Source of the DNA: an uncultured cyanobacterium
GTDB taxonomy: Bacteria; Cyanobacteriota; Cyanobacteriia; PCC-9006; JAAUQQ01
Length of the DNA: 64,000 nt
Direction of reading: 5' to 3'
Assembly (NCBI GenBank): GCA_963718615.1
Contig: OY970368.1
Span: 3,200,001-3,264,000 of the forward strand
Positions 49,561-54,964 of this stretch are shown here, piece after piece. The notes under the pieces were generated by a model. It saw nothing but the letters and a program-made list of their open reading frames with translations. It made no database searches and was not told where the DNA came from. The position numbers and the translations under genes are program-made. Every line of letters starts with the position of its first letter. Positions within the stretch are counted from its first letter, which is position 1.

Positions 49561-50019
49561 GTGTTTAATCTGCGTAATGGATTCATTTTGGGCTTGGCAA
49601 GTGTAGCGATCGCGACCACCGCGACTACCGCTCAAGCCCAATCCGCGACCAGTAGCTACAACTATATCGGCGGTGGTGTGAGCGACGAGGGTCTCGTGAT
49701 CAATGGCAAGGCTCAAATCACGCCCCAGTTTTCGATTCGGCCTGCGGCGATTTTGAACTACGACTTTGACGACGCAACGTTCCTCGTTCCGGTTACCTAC
49801 GACTTCGCTCAGGTTGAAGCCGGTGAAGCCAATCTTCTGCCCTTCGCAGGTGCAGGGGTTCGGATTGAAACGGACGGTGATGATAACTTTGGTGCCTTGG
49901 TAACCGGTGGTGTGGACTATCGGATTACGGAGCGTTGGACCGCCAATGGGTCGTTGAATGTCTCCTTTATCAATGATACGAACTTCGACTTTATCGTGGG
50001 TGTGGGCTACAACTTCTAG
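49561..50019 (+). CDS. small outer-membrane beta-barrel protein
   Basis: Signal peptide (AQA), alternating beta strands, C-terminal BAM signal 'GVGYNF'; GAGGAG RBS. Confidence 0.88.
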   Translation: MFNLRNGFILGLASVAIATTATTAQAQSATSSYNYIGGGVSDEGLVINGKAQITPQFSIRPAAILNYDFDDATFLVPVTYDFAQVEAGEANLLPFAGAGVRIETDGDDNFGALVTGGVDYRITERWTANGSLNVSFINDTNFDFIVGVGYNF

Positions 50020-50050
50020 CCCTAGAGCTTCTAGCCCTAGGCCTAAGTAC

Positions 50051-50090
50051 AAAAAAAGCGGGTCTGTGCTTTGCCTAGACCCGCTTTTGC
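50051..50090. terminator. bidirectional rho-independent terminator
   Basis: AAAAAAAGCGGGTCT-loop-AGACCCGCTTTT between convergent genes. Confidence 0.85.
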
Positions 50091-50124
50091 TATGAATTAC
50101 AGCCCCTAGCCCTGCCAGCCTGAT

Positions 50125-50830
50125 TTACCACATGCCCTGAATCGGCTCAACGTTAACCGATTGAACATTTTGCTTCACCGCCACCTGACGGCTAGCCGAG
50201 GCATTGCCAGCCCACATGGCTTGCATCCGATCCTGACGACGGGCCTCAACCGCAGCGAAGCGGGAGCTCAGCATTTCATGTGCCATTTGAGCTTTGGACT
50301 TTGCTTGGGTGGATTTGAGCATGCTCACCACTTCATCAATCCCAGCATAGGTCGACCCACGGCGGCGCAGTTCAATGACATCCACCTGGGCATCCACCGG
50401 ATAGTTCGCAACAATTTCTAGCGGAGTCAGAGCGTTGTCATCTTTCAGGGAGTTGATGATCGCAGCCCGCAGCGCTTGCTTAGCATCTTTGCTGGTGCTG
50501 CGCGGCATGATCACTTGAGCCAGATCATCCAGCAGAGCTTCGCCTTCACCGGAGTTGAACAGGGCATCTGGCAGCCGCTAGGTCGTAGTTCACCGTTTGC
50601 GACAAAAAGCCACGGGCCTCTTCCGGTTCCACATTGGTTTCGGAGAGTACGAGATGGAGAACCCCATCGGAGATGCCTTCATCCACTAGCAGATTCAATT
50701 CATCCAGGGTCACGGACTGATGCAGTGCACCATTGATCAGCGTCAGATTATCAGCCGCTTTCGCCGCAGTGGGCAGCAGCATCGCTAAACCAAGACCGAG
50801 CAAAGCAGACAGTTTTACCGAGAATTTCAT
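50125..50830 (-). pseudogene. secreted DUF1400-domain protein split by one frameshift near 50569; ends in QGMW
   Basis: ORFs 50546..50905 and 50125..50514 join (YDLAAA/DALFNSGEGEALLDDLAQVI) into signal peptide plus DUF1400 ('ALRAAII..L.DD..LT.LE...NYP'). Confidence 0.75.
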
Positions 50831-51674
50831 GTTGGCTAAATCCATTACTACATCTAACGGAGACACGAAAAGGGTGAAACAGCCTTTTCGGGAGAGGAGC
50901 AACAAGGCAGTTTAGTCTTTCGCTCTCAATTAAATAATGCCCCGACTCAACTTGAAATCACCCGAGATCTTACTGATTTATTAACAGATTAATTATCTTT
51001 TATGGATTTATATACTCGTTCAAGTTTGTGAATAAATTTATTTCATCAGTTTCTTTTCAGCAGATATATTTCCGCCAACAGCGCTAAAATTTCTCAAAAC
51101 AAGGGAAATTTGCTAAATCCCTTTTTATATAAAGACCTTAGCCTCTAGACTTTTCACTCTTTTTTCAGAAAGAAATTTCAAAATAAAATCAAAGCAGAAT
51201 ACCATAATCCTAATTTTTTTGAGAAAATGTCTAGATAATAATGCTTTGATTTTCTTTGAGAGGGCATACACTTGCTAGCCAGTGGAAAGTTTTAGACTTG
51301 GTAAAGTATCCATAACGCTACCTAGGGCAAATACACTCAGCAAATATTTGATCCAAGGCGTAGAGAGTGAGATCAGTCCAGTTCAAGCTTAATTGACTTT
51401 TATTGTCATTAAAATTTCAAGTGCTGTAACAGGAGATGTTGTCTCTAGATAATATGTCTGCCCGCTAAAACAAGAATTGTATTTTGAATTACAAGTTGAA
51501 ACAGTCTGAAATATTAGTATTTGCGTAGCACTGAGGCTACTATTGATTTTTCGAGCTTCCAGTCACTGCCTGGTTAAGCCGGTTGTTTTTCTGCTTCCAA
51601 TTCGCAATAATAGAGGGCATAGATAAGAAAGACTGCCAATTGATGAGCCCGAACCCATTACATCAGAGAACATC

Positions 51675-52211
51675 ATGCTATCTCAAGCTCTGAGCGATCG
51701 CCTCAACCAACAAATCAATCTAGAAATGTACTCCTCCCATCTCTACCTACAAACGAGTTCCTGGTGCGCCTATAAATCTTTAGATGGCTGTGCCGAATTC
51801 TTGCGTCTCCATGCCGAGGAAGAATCGGGTCATATGAACCGTCTGCTGAATTACATGCATGAGACTGGAGCATTTGTCATTTTGGGTGGAATGGAAGCAC
51901 CACCCACGCAATTTGAGTCATTAACTGCACTGTTTGAGAAAATCTATGAGCATGAGTTATTCATCACAACAAACATTAATGATCTAGTGCATTTAGCGAA
52001 TACAGAACCCGATTACTCAACCTTGCAGTTCCTGCAATGGTATGTCGCAGAACAACATCAAGAGGAGTTTCTGTTTAAAGGGATTTTGGACAAAATTAAA
52101 TTAATTGGAACCGAAGGCCAAGGGCTGTTCTTAATTGATAAAGAAGTAGGTAAATTAGCGGCCTCTTCAGCCAAAGAAGTAACCACTATGACTTCTGAAT
52201 CTGATGTTTAG
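51675..52211 (+). CDS. ftnA: non-heme ferritin
   Basis: 'LNQQINLEMYSSHLYL', 'EEESGH', 'EHE', 'FLQWYVAEQHQEE' ferroxidase residues. Confidence 0.93.
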   Translation: MLSQALSDRLNQQINLEMYSSHLYLQTSSWCAYKSLDGCAEFLRLHAEEESGHMNRLLNYMHETGAFVILGGMEAPPTQFESLTALFEKIYEHELFITTNINDLVHLANTEPDYSTLQFLQWYVAEQHQEEFLFKGILDKIKLIGTEGQGLFLIDKEVGKLAASSAKEVTTMTSESDV

Positions 52212-52235
52212 ACCTTCCAGTCTTTCTTTCTCACG

Positions 52236-52272
52236 AAAAAGCGGTGGGCACTCAACAGGTGCTCACCGCCTC
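52236..52272 (-). terminator. rho-independent terminator between ferritin and the convergent gene
   Basis: AAAAAGCGGTGGGCAC-loop-GTGCTCACCGC. Confidence 0.75.
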
Positions 52273-52340
52273 TACTTAAAGTCATCAACCGCAGTCATGA
52301 ATAAAGGGGACTTATCCCCCATATTCTGCGTATTCAGAAT

Positions 52341-52796
52341 TTACCACATGCCTTGAACGGAGCAGTAGCCAAGGTTGCTCTGACCCAGGGCAACGCCTTG
52401 ACCCGCACCACCAGCGGGACGAGCATCAGACAACGGCATCCAAACTTTAGCGCCATTGTCGTCGCGCACCGCAATCATAAACGTACCTTGGTTCATATCG
52501 CTAGGATTGACTGCTAGCTGCTTTTCTTGGGGATAGGCCAGGATCACTTTGGACCCTAAAGACTTGACATTCGTTGGGGTACCACCGTACACGTCAGAAG
52601 GATCGCTGTAAACAGGCACTTGATTGTTGTCGAGACCGGAAACGGCACGGGGCTGATCAGGGCCACCCACGTTGGTGATAATGCGACGGCAGCCGGGATC
52701 GCTATCAATAAAGCTATTCGCAGATGCGGGTGCAATAGACCCTAGGGTTGTTACAGCAAGAGCGAGAAAAGCAACAGACTTTGCAAGCTTAATCAT
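52341..52796 (-). CDS. secreted SH3-like protein with a Cys pair, ending in QGMW
   Basis: Signal peptide (ASA); 'CRRI...VPVYSDP...GSKVIL...VWMP...SNLGYC' resembles cyanobacterial SH3b-like domains. Confidence 0.6.
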   Translation of the reverse strand: MIKLAKSVAFLALAVTTLGSIAPASANSFIDSDPGCRRIITNVGGPDQPRAVSGLDNNQVPVYSDPSDVYGGTPTNVKSLGSKVILAYPQEKQLAVNPSDMNQGTFMIAVRDDNGAKVWMPLSDARPAGGAGQGVALGQSNLGYCSVQGMW

Positions 52797-53178: not shown

Positions 53179-53925
53179 ATGACTTTTTCTAGATTCCTCA
53201 CCGTCCTCAGTTTGCCGATTACACTCAACCTTGTTTTAGGAAGCAGCCTAGTCTCTCCTGCTCAAGCCGAGCCAAAACTTCTAGAAGATTTTTCATCGGT
53301 CACCCTAGAGCTCGATTTGCCCGACTCAGACCCAGAGCCTACGCAAGACGAGCCAAGTGAAGTCAAAAATCAACCGATTGAATCAGAGGTTCAGTCGGAG
53401 GTTCAATTAGAGGTCCAATCAGAGACTGAGTTAGAGGTTAAGGGAGAAACTGAGCCAGAAACCGATAGGACTGAGGCCCCTGAGCCAGCCAGCTCGATGG
53501 AAAATGCCGATGCACCGCAAACACAAACCCAGGAAGATCCAACTCGGTTGGTTTTGAGATTGCGGGAACGGCGGGTGTATGTGGTCCAGGGCGATCGCCC
53601 CCTAGTCAGCTACCCCGTCGCCATCGGCAAAGCCGGCTGGGAAACGCCAGTGGGTCAGTTCAAGGTGTTAAACAAAATTCCAGATCCAGTATGGCGACAC
53701 CCCTGGAACGGAAATTTAGTGAGTCCAGGTCCAAGCAATCCCCTAGGCCGACGTTGGATTGGCTTCTGGAGCGATGGACGAAATATGATTGGATTTCATG
53801 GAACCATCGATGAATCCTTGATTGGTCAGGCGGTTTCCCATGGCTGCGTTCGCATGAAAAATGCTGATGTGGCAGCGCTGTTTGAGTGGGCGGAAGAAGG
53901 GATGCTGGTTACGGTTGAACCCTAG
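53179..53925 (+). CDS. L,D-transpeptidase (YkuD family)
   Basis: 'YPVAIGKAGWETPVG', 'NPLGRRWIGF', 'IGFHGT', 'SHGCVRM'. Confidence 0.93.
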   Translation: MTFSRFLTVLSLPITLNLVLGSSLVSPAQAEPKLLEDFSSVTLELDLPDSDPEPTQDEPSEVKNQPIESEVQSEVQLEVQSETELEVKGETEPETDRTEAPEPASSMENADAPQTQTQEDPTRLVLRLRERRVYVVQGDRPLVSYPVAIGKAGWETPVGQFKVLNKIPDPVWRHPWNGNLVSPGPSNPLGRRWIGFWSDGRNMIGFHGTIDESLIGQAVSHGCVRMKNADVAALFEWAEEGMLVTVEP

Positions 53926-53926
53926 A

Positions 53927-54964
53927 TTAAGCGATCACAGGAATCGTCTGTCCAGTCTCAGCCGCCCGCCGCATGGCATCTGCTACGCGGAGGGCATATA
54001 GACTTTCTGTGATTGATACGTAGAGCGGAGGGCGATCGGCCTGGTTTATTTCGGCCTGACTCATTTCGGTCTGACTCATCGTTGCAGAACTGCCCAAATA
54101 ATCCAAAACCATCGCCGTATCCTTGGCAAATAAGCCTCGCTTCCCCCCGACTTCTAAGGGAATTTCGCCATCGTGGCTGAGAAAAACGCCCTGGTCTTGC
54201 TCAAATCGTAGGGCACCGCGATCGCCACTCACCTCAAACAACCGCTCCGCCCGCCAAAACGCTTCACCTTTGCCATAGGTTAGCGTTCCCAAAACACCAC
54301 TGGTAAAAAAGAGCTGAGCATTGCATAAACAACTTAAAAAATAATTGGGATCATCGGGGGCGGACCAAAACTTCGCCTGACAACTGACCGAGGCCACGGG
54401 TCCAAAGGCATGGGTGAGGCGATGCACCCGTGAGAGCGCAGCCACGAGGGGAAACCCCAGGTCTTGATAGTGAAAGCTCCAGCGGCGAGGAGCAGGGGAT
54501 TTGGGGGCAATGGTTGCGTAGCGAACGTGATGGGGTGTGCCGATTCGTTCTAGATTTTCTAACAGAGACTGGTGTAAGCCGCCCAGGATCTCGATATGTT
54601 CGACGTGGAGCAGAAGTCCTTTCGCTTGGGCTAAGGAGACAAGGGCTTCCGCTTGGGCGAGGTCGAGGGAGAGGGGATATTCGACAACGACATGTTTCCC
54701 CGCTTGGAGAGCCGCTGCGGCGATGGGTCCATGGTCGCGGTTGATGGTGGCAATTACAATTAAATCGAGATCGGAGCGGGCAATGAGCGATCGCCAATCC
54801 GCTTCCACAATCACCCCAAAGGGCTGGGCAAAGGTACGGGTACGCTGGGGATCTTGGCCCGCGATCGCCACCCAGTTGGCACGCGGATCGGCCCTAAGAG
54901 CCTCGGCCCGCAGTTTAGCCGCGTAGCCTGTTCCGACTAATCCCACCCGAAGTTGTTGTTTCAC
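53927..54964 (-). CDS. bvdR: biliverdin reductase-like Gfo/Idh/MocA oxidoreductase
   Basis: 'VGLVGTGYAAKLRA', 'GKHVVVEYPL', 'LLHVEHIEILGGLH', 'YGKGE'. Confidence 0.82.
   Translation of the reverse strand: MKQQLRVGLVGTGYAAKLRAEALRADPRANWVAIAGQDPQRTRTFAQPFGVIVEADWRSLIARSDLDLIVIATINRDHGPIAAAALQAGKHVVVEYPLSLDLAQAEALVSLAQAKGLLLHVEHIEILGGLHQSLLENLERIGTPHHVRYATIAPKSPAPRRWSFHYQDLGFPLVAALSRVHRLTHAFGPVASVSCQAKFWSAPDDPNYFLSCLCNAQLFFTSGVLGTLTYGKGEAFWRAERLFEVSGDRGALRFEQDQGVFLSHDGEIPLEVGGKRGLFAKDTAMVLDYLGSSATMSQTEMSQAEINQADRPPLYVSITESLYALRVADAMRRAAETGQTIPVIA

Follow-up and report, generated by a model that had tools for sequence, protein, structure and literature searches.

Short C-terminal sorting and anchoring signals, LPXTG and PEP-CTERM among them, organise the surfaces of bacteria; every one of them has led to the discovery of its own machinery. 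In the LPXTG/sortase system of Gram-positive bacteria, many unrelated protein families share a signal peptide, a domain, a Pro/Thr-rich linker that spans the wall and a short C-terminal motif; downstream of the motif lie a hydrophobic helix and a basic tail, sortase cleaves the motif, and the protein becomes attached to peptidoglycan. The PEP-CTERM/exosortase (including cyanoexosortases) and GlyGly-CTERM/rhombosortase signals also occur on unrelated exported proteins of one lineage, from few to many per genome, and consist of a motif, a TM helix and a basic cluster. In E. coli, the L,D-transpeptidases LdtA, LdtB and LdtC (ErfK, YbiS, YcfS) join the Braun lipoprotein Lpp, recognised at its extreme C-terminus, to peptidoglycan via the side-chain amine of the C-terminal Lys, and in Alphaproteobacteria L,D-transpeptidases tether outer-membrane proteins through the N-terminal amine. 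The beta-signal of outer-membrane proteins (BAM, the DegS PDZ domain, YxF-COOH) is the last strand of the barrel; its terminal aromatic residue, with the carboxylate free, is read in the periplasm. Finally, PTS1 (SKL-COOH) with its receptor PEX5 and the McdB protein represent short motifs at the extreme end of flexible tails, by which unrelated cargo is docked to one receptor; the invariant C-terminal Trp of McdB reportedly docks to carboxysomes, which makes it a cyanobacterial precedent for a terminal Trp. Several questions are commonly treated as open for cyanobacteria: what keeps exported proteins in their proper layer of the envelope; what connects outer membrane, thick wall and inner membrane in the absence of a Braun-type lipoprotein and of a recognised Lol pathway; and how proteins are distributed among periplasm, thylakoid lumen and medium.

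Here we describe a six-residue C-terminal tag that is common to unrelated exported proteins of many cyanobacteria and is apparently new to the literature. Its consensus is [E/Q/A]-[P/S]-[V/I]-[R/Q/x]-[G/A]-[L/M]-W-COOH, and the commonest form is PVRGLW. The starting point was a stretch of 64,000 nucleotides ("the window") from the genome of an uncultured cyanobacterium, in which a sequence-only reading had noticed that two unrelated secreted proteins end in the same [IV]QGMW before the stop codon.

The tail is similar to LPXTG signals in the build of its carriers and in the number of families involved, and attachment to peptidoglycan is also the outcome that we propose for it. However, its sequence is unrelated, and it forms the very C-terminus of the protein: a tail has the form [P/S]-[V/I]-x-[G/A]-[L/M]-W, and the stop codon comes directly after the Trp. 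It differs from the PEP-CTERM and GlyGly-CTERM signals in being only six residues long, and a search of 27 tail proteins with the NCBIfam sorting-domain models gave no match at E <= 0.1. The likeness to Lpp consists in the terminal position of the recognised residues and in the repeated adjacency of YkuD genes to tail genes; in contrast to Lpp, the tail is terminated by Trp and has no conserved amine, position -1 being always W and position -4 mostly R or Q. Unlike the beta-signal, it stands behind a disordered linker, and the proteins that carry it are soluble or anchored; the linkers preceding it are rich in P, T, E and A, and fasciclin, META, MliC and Ferritin_2 proteins are among its carriers. 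PTS1 and McdB act in the peroxisome or the cytoplasm and have other sequences, and their comparison with the tail does not imply homology.

Table 1. Features of the window discussed in the text
Feature	Position	Strand	Remarks
Small OMP	49561..50019		neighbour considered as a partner
DUF1400 gene, C-terminal part	50125..50577	-	end of the domain, helix with conserved MQAMWAG, variable linker, PIQGMW tail
PIQGMW codons	50128-50145; stop 50125-50127	-	within the C-terminal DUF1400 part
DUF1400 gene, N-terminal part	50546..50830	-	Sec signal peptide MKFSVKLSALLGLGLAMLLPTAAKA and Pfam DUF1400 positions 1-61, in a different frame
Putative extra single base splitting the DUF1400 gene	~50569	-	DNA read against the homolog alignment
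151-aa exported SH3b-like protein	52341..52796	-	signal peptide, conserved Cys36/Cys145 pair, SVQGMW tail
SVQGMW codons	52344-52361; stop 52341-52343	-	within the SH3b-like gene
YkuD-family L,D-transpeptidase	53179..53925	+	divergent from the SH3b-like gene; signal peptide, acidic linker, catalytic domain with SHGCVRM

Both the DNA and the translation bear out the common ending of the two window genes: on the minus strand, 50125-50145 reads CCG ATT CAG GGC ATG TGG TAA (P I Q G M W stop) and 52341-52361 reads TCC GTT CAA GGC ATG TGG TAA (S V Q G M W stop). The near-identity of the DNA ends is equally real, since the 17-base strings are present and differ by a single synonymous mismatch (CAG/CAA); beyond the motif the DNA identity ends. 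Met and Trp are encoded by one codon each. The bodies of the proteins are non-homologous, as had been claimed, one having a DUF1400 domain and the other a predicted SH3b-like beta domain. In the whole 6.1-Mb source genome, QGMW closes 2 of 79,096 stop-to-stop ORFs of at least 40 aa, and both are located in the window, 2.2 kb apart. Inside proteins, 7 instances of [IV][RQNEP]G[LM]W were counted among the 1,801,603 residues of 4,335 long ORFs of this genome, from which we calculate that about 0.02 C-terminal cases would be expected by chance.

Conservation of the tail is evident in the families of both genes. For the SH3b-like protein, which has a Sec-type signal peptide (..SIAPASA|NSF) and gave no match in a Pfam search, the tail is retained in 10 of 10 aligned family members of 29-57% identity, ending in C-x-[VI]-[RQ]-[GA]-[LM]-W or C-xGS(A)P-[VI]-R-G-L-W. 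The predicted model of this protein has a mean pLDDT of 60.5 (72-87 in the core), and the top ten matches of a fold search against 48,161 chains were all SH3b cell-wall-binding domains, although at Z of 4.4-5.0, which is under the reliable level of the tool; the best of them was 4lxc_A (Z 5.0, rmsd 3.4, 68 aligned residues). For DUF1400, P-I-x-G-[LM]-W is kept in 7 of 9 homologs, among whose endings are PINGMW, PIRGLW, PIEGLW and PIRGMW, and distant members from two GTDB families carry PVRGLW or PVPGMW after linkers that cannot be aligned.

The frequency of the motif, which the sequence-only reading had named as a test, is above background: the DNA pattern of the tail was matched 203 times in 133 of 401 cyanobacterial genomes, and the reversed control pattern 37 times (a total that we summed by hand). 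When 80 loci from a scan of all prokaryotes were inspected, ORFs of at least 100 aa were found at 34 of the 36 loci with cyanobacterial titles and at 5 of the 44 others; two of these five resemble cyanobacterial tail proteins and seem to lie on contigs of cyanobacterial origin, and three look like spurious frames of GC-rich DNA. Only 3 of the 120 best fasciclin homologs, which come mostly from other phyla, have the tail. It is thus essentially confined to cyanobacteria. Within the genome sample, it was found in families f1, f28, f11 and f17 and in a part of f5, f9, f19, f22 and f2 (our numbering), while it was rare or not found in f15, f4, f21, f7, f16, f3 and the streamlined genus g40. A looser pattern, GGNHTNTGGTRR, applied to five f15 genomes gave counts equal to those of the control. 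In the source genome, the idea of a tag spread over many proteins was abandoned after a six-frame scan, which revealed only the two window genes with G at position -3 and two more with A at this position. A cytoplasmic-looking enzyme of 467 aa from this genome, which ends in PPARALW and has no signal peptide, was counted as a chance case.

The pooled sites comprise 122 non-redundant ORFs that end in the tail, and in all of them the motif is the very end of the protein, with no hydrophobic helix beyond it. BLAST placed these ORFs in 35 clusters, three of which are non-cyanobacterial, GC-rich and look spurious, while one is an overlapping ORF of the same site; the resulting number of about 31 unrelated cyanobacterial clusters is not an unbiased census, as many sites were picked by us from the listed matches. 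They fit the suggestion of the sequence-only reading that similar [RQ]G[LM]W endings occur on other cyanobacterial exported proteins, and the Ala variant anticipated in its pattern [VI][RQ][GA][LM]W$ indeed occurs at position -3. At the sites that we chose, 41 of 51 pattern-ending ORFs were at least 140 aa long, each with an N-terminal hydrophobic signal-like segment, and 39 of 40 further sites were ORFs of 120-1291 aa. For signal peptides we relied on a crude script in place of a trained predictor; 3 of 34 cyanobacterial ORFs did not pass it. A Pfam search of 39 tail ORFs identified Fasciclin (5), META (3), MliC (2), Ferritin_2 (2), Peptidase_M16 (1) and DUF1344 (1), leaving 25 with no domain; fasciclin, the third tail family, was found in the genomes of two relatives. 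No Pfam or NCBIfam match covered the tail itself.

The usual carrier is built of a signal peptide or anchor, a domain, a linker rich in Pro, Thr, Glu and Ala, and the tail. The Pro fraction is 0.148 in the linkers vs 0.050 in the bodies, and Thr is enriched as well. Position -4, which was free in the search pattern, is strongly biased (R 34, Q 11, N 4, P 3, S 1; n = 53), and K was seen there once among the pooled tails. Three proteins (L112, L132 and L310) consist of nothing but a TM anchor, a linker and the tail, and another carrier (L131) has a lipobox. An outer-membrane-like protein of 1238 aa from the source genome (L311) ends in PVPALW about 90 residues past its last barrel-like strand (..KLDNLF); it agrees with a 46%-identical ortholog ending in PIRGLW up to this strand and after it only in the tail.

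Among the neighbours of tail genes, the L,D-transpeptidases of the YkuD family deserve attention. The window gene matches Pfam YkuD (PF03734) at 8.2e-24 (85.3 bits, cutoff 23.4), and FHGT and SHGCVRM are invariant in an alignment of five YkuD proteins. YkuD genes adjoin tail genes of five different families: a divergent YkuD gene lies next to the SH3b-like gene in the window and at L001; another adjoins a DUF1400-tail gene (L003); in three genomes of one genus from another family, YkuD is next to a small-barrel gene ending in PVRGLW (L120, L122, L143); in two genera, two tandem YkuD genes are located directly downstream of fasciclin-tail genes (L158, L161); and at L188 a PIPALW variant is two genes away from YkuD. 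Since there are 2-4 YkuD genes per genome, we estimate that about 0.3% of genes would have one within two genes.

The sequence-only reading had named both the L,D-transpeptidase and the small OMP as possible partners; only the former gained from our data, through the repeated adjacency and a weak complex score. A prediction of YkuD residues 118-248 together with SH3b-like residues 27-151 scored 0.59, while the best of three controls scored 0.00. This is rated as weak support. Of 157 solved complexes, 116 reach the mark, as do 2 of 215 mismatched pairs; with scores of 0.60 or below, it is reached by only 18 of the 157 and by both of the passing mismatches. The runs agreed in at least 91% of contacts, with a partner pLDDT of at least 79; as the score belongs to the weak range and the output names no interface, the tail is not identified as the binding part. 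The small OMP was rejected as a partner: it lies beside DUF1400-tail genes only in loci of the window's own family, and its adjacency therefore means nothing beyond shared synteny.

Several observations count against YkuD as the partner. No YkuD gene was nearby at 34 of the 36 loci whose neighbours were scanned with Pfam, and inspection of five further YkuD loci revealed no tail gene in the vicinity of four, the fifth lying two genes from a variant tail. The sequence-only reading had proposed that a receptor be sought by its phyletic profile, and here YkuD fails, since its distribution does not follow the tail. YkuD is absent in three streamlined genomes without pattern matches and present in two tail-positive relatives; three f15 genomes without a pattern match carry 3-4 close YkuD homologs (the narrow pattern matched 1 of 39 f15 genomes); and for the YkuD type at the head of the f9 operons, a homolog of at least 64% identity was found in only 2 of 9 other genomes searched. 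We consequently discarded the phyletic profile as partner evidence, for it does not discriminate.

We suggest that the tail, a cyanobacteria-specific short linear motif, serves as a docking or anchoring tag, with peptidoglycan as its best candidate target and YkuD as its best candidate partner, a reading that we consider somewhat more probable than its opposite. The carriers are exported by the Sec pathway or anchored in a membrane and present the tag mostly at the end of a flexible low-complexity linker. A common periplasmic partner, for which a YkuD-type L,D-transpeptidase such as that of the window is the best candidate, would capture the free C-terminal hexapeptide and thereby leash unrelated domains, bare inner-membrane anchors and the outer-membrane-like protein to one envelope structure, of which the peptidoglycan layer would best fit the range of carriers. 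The YkuD genes beside tail genes of five families point to peptidoglycan, and the anchor-only, lipobox and outer-membrane-like carriers point to the middle of the envelope. The absence of a conserved amine in the tail excludes its use by an L,D-transpeptidase as an acceptor in the manner of Lpp. The earlier proposal of a short C-terminal tag on envelope proteins, without the TM helix of PEP-CTERM-type signals, fits the conservation, breadth, enrichment and taxonomic limits of the motif, although the function is inferred.

A tag on about 30 families opens a straightforward way to experiments: being a small peptide, it can be fused to reporters or used as bait for a receptor, and it defines a candidate set of envelope-tethered proteins, usually of one to five genes, in any genome that bears the tail. 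It also matters for secretion engineering in cyanobacteria, where export would be defeated by a retention tag that had been overlooked. Should the partners turn out to be L,D-transpeptidases, this enzyme family would have a considerably wider range of protein substrates than is now known. Among the matches listed in our literature searches, which covered sources outside subscription journals, no paper treats the tail strings in this sense, the listed matches being acronyms and one unrelated paper. Among the matches listed for cyanobacteria, papers on DUF1400 do not mention a C-terminal tail, those on C-terminal sorting contain nothing relevant, and those on LD-transpeptidases name no protein substrates; the matches listed for C-terminal tryptophan include McdB and prenyltransferases.

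The tail might alternatively be a PDZ ligand of a periplasmic protease of the Ctp/Prc or Deg/HtrA type, marking the carrier for processing or degradation or activating the protease. PDZ domains read free hydrophobic C-termini of this format, Ctp and Deg proteases are present in cyanobacteria, and the YxF-COOH ends of outer-membrane proteins activate DegS; the need for a free C-terminus, the hydrophobic-aromatic end and the flexible linker before it all suit this explanation. Nevertheless, none of 144 neighbour ORFs has a PDZ, S41 or trypsin-like domain (E <= 1e-5), while four have YkuD, and it is implausible that bare proteins of a TM anchor and a linker exist merely to be degraded. We regard the protease explanation as unlikely.

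The same low probability is given by us to a sorting signal with no anchoring role, which would direct carriers onward across or into the outer membrane or decide between the periplasm and the thylakoid lumen. The carriers are exported (as far as the crude script allows, with its 3 failures among 34 cyanobacterial ORFs), and PMC12341915 calls lumen/periplasm sorting and exoprotein release in cyanobacteria unresolved, a term search of it giving no C-terminal motif. In addition, the Anabaena exoproteome (PMC4390845) lists the fasciclin protein All3797, a potential carrier of the tail. However, inner-membrane-anchored, lipoprotein and outer-membrane-like carriers need no onward transport, long Pro-rich rod-like linkers suit tethering better than transit, and no transporter gene recurs beside tail genes.

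A more radical version of anchoring, which we think quite doubtful, is that L,D-transpeptidases act on the tail as sortases act on LPXTG. The end of a peptidoglycan stem peptide would be imitated by G-[L/M]-W-COOH: Gly would take the place of the D-residue and Leu/Met that of the L-centre of diaminopimelate, and the last residue would act as leaving group; YkuD would remove Trp, form an acyl-enzyme and join the new C-terminus to the amine of diaminopimelate. If this were true, covalent bonds would fix periplasmic, inner-membrane and outer-membrane proteins from about 30 families to the unusually thick peptidoglycan of cyanobacteria.

That the tail has no common function, the window endings arising from local DNA exchange or chance and the others from compositional coincidence, is highly improbable: the genes are close and their DNA strings differ by one base, but identity stops at the motif, where M and W allow a single codon each and the sole difference is synonymous, orthologs on other contigs and in other genomes keep the tail, matches greatly exceed the control, position -4 is strongly biased, and long ORFs closed by the pattern occur almost exclusively in cyanobacteria. 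A local repeat or gene conversion was likewise rejected as the source, given the end of identity at the motif, the lone synonymous difference and the orthologs elsewhere that retain the tail.

The DUF1400 gene of the window has a peculiarity of its own. A Sec signal peptide had been ascribed to both proteins; this stands for the SH3b-like protein, while in the DUF1400 gene the signal peptide is out of frame with the tail. Pfam DUF1400 (PF07176) is matched twice, at 26.7 bits (positions 86-122) and 24.0 bits (positions 1-61) with a cutoff of 23.4, while an intact relative (L119) reaches 107.6 bits. Compared with nine intact homologs of 208-259 aa, the gene reads 'gcc a gat gcc' in place of ..A-D-A.., and one TAG was reported within a match to it. 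The split by one base, placed approximately from this alignment, is probably an assembly error or the mark of a recent pseudogene.

The two unrelated secreted proteins of the window were claimed, in a sequence-only reading, to share the C-terminus [IV]QGMW-stop. Both endings are present, and so are the nearly identical 17-base strings at the two gene ends, which are one base apart (CAG/CAA, synonymous). In the whole 6.1-Mb genome, only these two genes, among 79,096 ORFs, end in QGMW, and inside long ORFs the pattern [IV][RQNEP]G[LM]W occurs 7 times in 1.8 million residues, which by our own arithmetic gives approximately 0.02 expected C-terminal cases. The coincidence far exceeds chance.

The Sec signal peptides assigned to both proteins hold for the SH3b-like protein; in the DUF1400 gene, the signal peptide lies in a separate ORF and frame from the tail. 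Alignment with nine intact homologs (208-259 aa) revealed that a single extra base at ~50569 (within 50546-50577) splits this gene, the Pfam positions 86-122 of DUF1400 being matched in the tail-carrying ORF, in a different frame from the N-half. In addition, one TAG was reported inside the match. The split is due to an error in the assembly, or the gene has recently become a pseudogene.

Features of the window and tail carriers elsewhere in its genome (G000, the genome; C1, a contig; L310 and L311, fetched loci; position -1, terminal W)
Feature	Position	Strand	Remarks
SH3b-like protein, 151 aa	52341..52796	minus	ORF; Sec-type signal peptide; ends YCSVQGMW-stop
DUF1400 gene, tail-carrying ORF	50125..50514 (stop-to-stop to 50577)	minus	ends VEPIQGMW-stop
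DUF1400 gene, N-half with signal peptide	50546..50830	minus	Pfam DUF1400 positions 1-61
GC-rich inverted repeat with flanking A and T runs	50050-50095		between convergent OMP and DUF1400 genes; by eye
GC-rich inverted repeat with flanking A and T runs	52240-52275		between convergent ferritin and SH3b-like genes; by eye
L310, 160 aa, N-terminal anchor, low-complexity linker and PVRAMW	G000:C1:937214-937696 (L310 2015..2497)	minus	Ala at -3
L311, 1238-aa outer-membrane-like protein, ends PVPALW	G000:C1:2569262-2572978 (L311 2263..5979)	plus	Ala at -3

The 151-aa SH3b-like family is rare: it has two relatives among 5.8 billion proteins and is present in 2 of 61 related genomes. A profile search over 1.84 billion representatives gave ten matches at E <= 0.001; eight of the nine examined are members of the family, all eight with the motif at their end, and the ninth is a repeat protein outside it. 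Pooled with the homologs from the other searches, the members end in CSVQGMW, CGIRGMW, CAIRGMW, CSVQALW, CTVRGMW, CSVRGMW, CTGSPVRGLW and CIGSAPIRGLW. Ten aligned members are 29-57% identical, their invariant residues including the Cys pair C36/C145 and the terminal W. The predicted structure has a beta-rich core (pLDDT 72-87; 60.5 overall), and in a comparison with 48,161 solved chains SH3b cell-wall-binding domains took all of the top ten places, with weak scores, the best being lysostaphin (4lxc_A; a weak Z of 5.0, rmsd 3.4, 68 aligned). In the DUF1400 family, P-I-x-G-[LM]-W closes seven of nine homologs, and the other two stop earlier, just past a conserved internal MQAMW. Among standalone DUF1400 proteins at a greater distance, some from two GTDB families finish with APVRGLW or KPVPGMW after unalignable linkers, and the tail is absent from other DUF1400 proteins. 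These comparisons indicate that the tail is kept in both families while the remainder drifts.

The DUF1400-tail proteins (homologs P0005-P0013; window 50220-50245, minus strand) also carry a conserved R-M-Q-A-M-W-A-G, which precedes the terminal x-G-M-W by 25-35 residues, and two homologs on short contigs stop directly after it (..MWSR and ..MWSN). It may duplicate the M-W element internally, or it may mark a site of processing. Tail-less standalone DUF1400 proteins (loci L014-L037) often finish with a Gly-rich stretch followed by one hydrophobic or aromatic residue (..SFGGGL, ..SFGGGF, ..NRGRFF, ..SIGLF, ..KLGF), which may represent alternative forms of a docking end at the C-terminus.

Scanning five related genomes for the pattern revealed a third unrelated tail family, the fasciclin proteins, with SVRGLW and PVRGLW following acidic linkers. 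Across 401 genomes of the class, P-[IV]-x-G-x-W-stop gave 708 matches in 297 genomes, and a narrower pattern (x being R, Q, H, S, K or N; stop being TAA or TAG) gave 203 matches in 133 genomes versus 37 for the reversed control, summed by hand. The spread of the narrow pattern is patchy by GTDB family: it was matched in 7/7 genomes of f1, 4/4 of f28, 12/17 of f11 and 27/39 of f17, in about half of the genomes of each of f5, f9 and f19, and scarcely in f15 (1/39) and f4 (1/23). It was absent from the sampled genomes of f21 (0/10), f7 (0/7), f16 (0/7) and f3 (0/5), and from all those of the streamlined genus g40.

The first site set, comprising 40 sites chosen from the listed matches and the loci returned with the 401-genome scan of the broader pattern, contained 51 ORFs with the ending. 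All 41 ORFs of at least 140 aa possess an N-terminal signal-like hydrophobic segment, and the remaining ten, shorter than 60 aa, were counted as noise. Forty further sites with 12-kb context yielded 39 ORFs of 120-1291 aa, the fortieth site being cut by a contig end. The pooled 122 non-redundant tail ORFs form 35 BLAST clusters, including three that are non-cyanobacterial, GC-rich and apparently spurious and one that stems from an overlapping ORF of a site already counted. Pfam names Fasciclin, DUF1400, META, MliC, Ferritin_2, Peptidase_M16 and DUF1344 among the carriers; 25 of the set of 39 have no Pfam match. The sequence-only reading also mentioned endings of the [RQ]G[LM]W type on other cyanobacterial exported proteins, which fits these data. 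We have high confidence in the existence and generality of the tag.

The exact PVRGLW-stop DNA pattern was scanned over one genome per species (185,579 prokaryote species), and 80 loci were examined among the matches listed. Cyanobacterial titles were found for 36 of these, 34 being ORFs of 129-306 aa; among the 44 that are non-cyanobacterial by title, 39 are frames below 100 aa, two of the five longer ones closely resemble picocyanobacterial tail proteins, and three look GC-rich spurious. Moreover, when the 120 best homologs of one fasciclin protein with the tail were compared, most of them from other phyla, only 3 had it too. This distribution points to a tail that is restricted to cyanobacteria. 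In the carriers searched, no Pfam or NCBIfam match covers the tail region, and the literature searched (8.4 million papers, with subscription journals outside its scope) holds no relevant mention of the tail strings or the concept, six such strings occurring in a single paper on an unrelated subject; the tail is apparently undescribed so far. The last 34 residues at L201 and L265, loci with non-cyanobacterial MAG titles, are nearly identical to those of picocyanobacterial tail proteins (cf. L215, L234), and both are probably cyanobacterial contigs in wrong bins.

The usual carrier starts with a signal peptide or anchor, followed by a domain, a low-complexity linker and the tail. Linkers are richer in P than the bodies (fraction 0.148 versus 0.050), and likewise in T, A, E and Q. 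The tail consensus is [E/Q/A]-[P/S]-[V/I]-[R/Q]-[G/A]-[L/M]-W, in which position -4, free in the search pattern, is occupied in 53 cases by R 34 times and by Q 11 times. Two carriers (L112, L132) comprise a membrane anchor, linker and tail and nothing else, and another (L131) is a lipobox protein. At least four carriers are encoded in the genome of the window, including two that lie outside the window and have Ala at -3. One of these, the 1238-aa protein, can be aligned with its 46%-identical ortholog (ending EPIRGLW) as far as the last barrel-like strand and, beyond it, solely in the tail. A DUF11 protein gene precedes the 1238-aa gene, and an OmpA-family gene follows the ortholog (L163).

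Since an invariant free-carboxylate hexapeptide follows a flexible linker of varying sequence on exported domains that are unrelated, we suggest that the tail would be a docking motif recognised by a single shared partner. Soluble periplasmic domains, inner-membrane anchors and an outer-membrane-like protein are all tailed, and therefore the simplest common target would lie between the membranes, possibly in the peptidoglycan layer or in a structure attached to it. We have moderate confidence in this docking or anchoring function, and within the reach of sequence analysis the earlier proposal of a C-terminal sorting, processing or docking tag on envelope proteins is supported. In function, the tag comes closest to the Lpp-LdtABC system and to the C-terminal signals by which Gram-positive bacteria sort proteins to the wall. 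It belongs to neither, nor to any of the tripartite sorting domains, for it lacks a helix, a basic tail and a lysine. We rate it as a variant within C-terminal sorting/anchoring signals.

Tentatively, the partner of the tail may be peptidoglycan or YkuD. In the window, as in L001, a gene for a YkuD L,D-transpeptidase is divergent from the SH3b-like gene; in L003 one adjoins the DUF1400-tail gene, the window's intervening ferritin and SH3b-like genes being absent. A YkuD gene adjoins a small-barrel PVRGLW gene in three f28 genomes of one genus, two in tandem lie immediately downstream of the fasciclin-tail gene in each of two f9 genera, and one lies two genes away from a PIPALW-variant gene in f11. 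These five independent adjacencies among a few dozen family-lineage groups, in a sampling that was not blind, are a clear excess, because with 2-4 YkuD per genome approximately 0.3% of genes (our own estimate) are expected to have one within two genes. Complex prediction for the YkuD catalytic domain and the mature SH3b-like protein of the window gave 0.59 versus 0.00 for the best of three controls, rated as weak support: 116/157 solved complexes and 2/215 mismatched pairs reached the mark, with 18 of the 157 and both passing mismatches at 0.60 or under. The runs had at least 91% contact agreement and a partner pLDDT of at least 79, the score not being tied to any reported interface. However, a YkuD neighbour is absent at 34 of 36 scanned tail loci, YkuD is present in lineages with the pattern at background, and the tail lacks the amine for the known Lpp-type reaction, all of which count against YkuD. 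The partner may instead be a PDZ protease, although none of 144 neighbour ORFs had a PDZ domain, or an unknown receptor or transporter. That an L,D-transpeptidase acts as a sortase on a stem-peptide mimic we consider improbable.

By eye, ~760 bp of AT-rich non-coding DNA (50906-51670) separate the DUF1400 and ferritin genes. The ferritin and SH3b-like genes look like an insertion in the window or a loss in L003, because DUF1400 and YkuD are direct divergent neighbours in the latter. Both inverted repeats of the window look like bidirectional intrinsic terminators.

Genes for iron, haem and oxidative stress recur beside tail genes (window 51675-52211 and 53927-54964; L147, L150, L152, L154, L165, L166, L177, L107, L118), which may reflect a stress regulon or chance. 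Among their products are ferritin (window, L147, L150), rubrerythrin (L152, L154), superoxide dismutase (L150), haem oxygenase (L147) and hemerythrin (L166). A Gfo/Idh/MocA oxidoreductase, which from its family motifs we take to resemble biliverdin reductase, forms one cluster across the window, L003, L107 and L118. Two tail carriers are themselves exported Ferritin_2 proteins.
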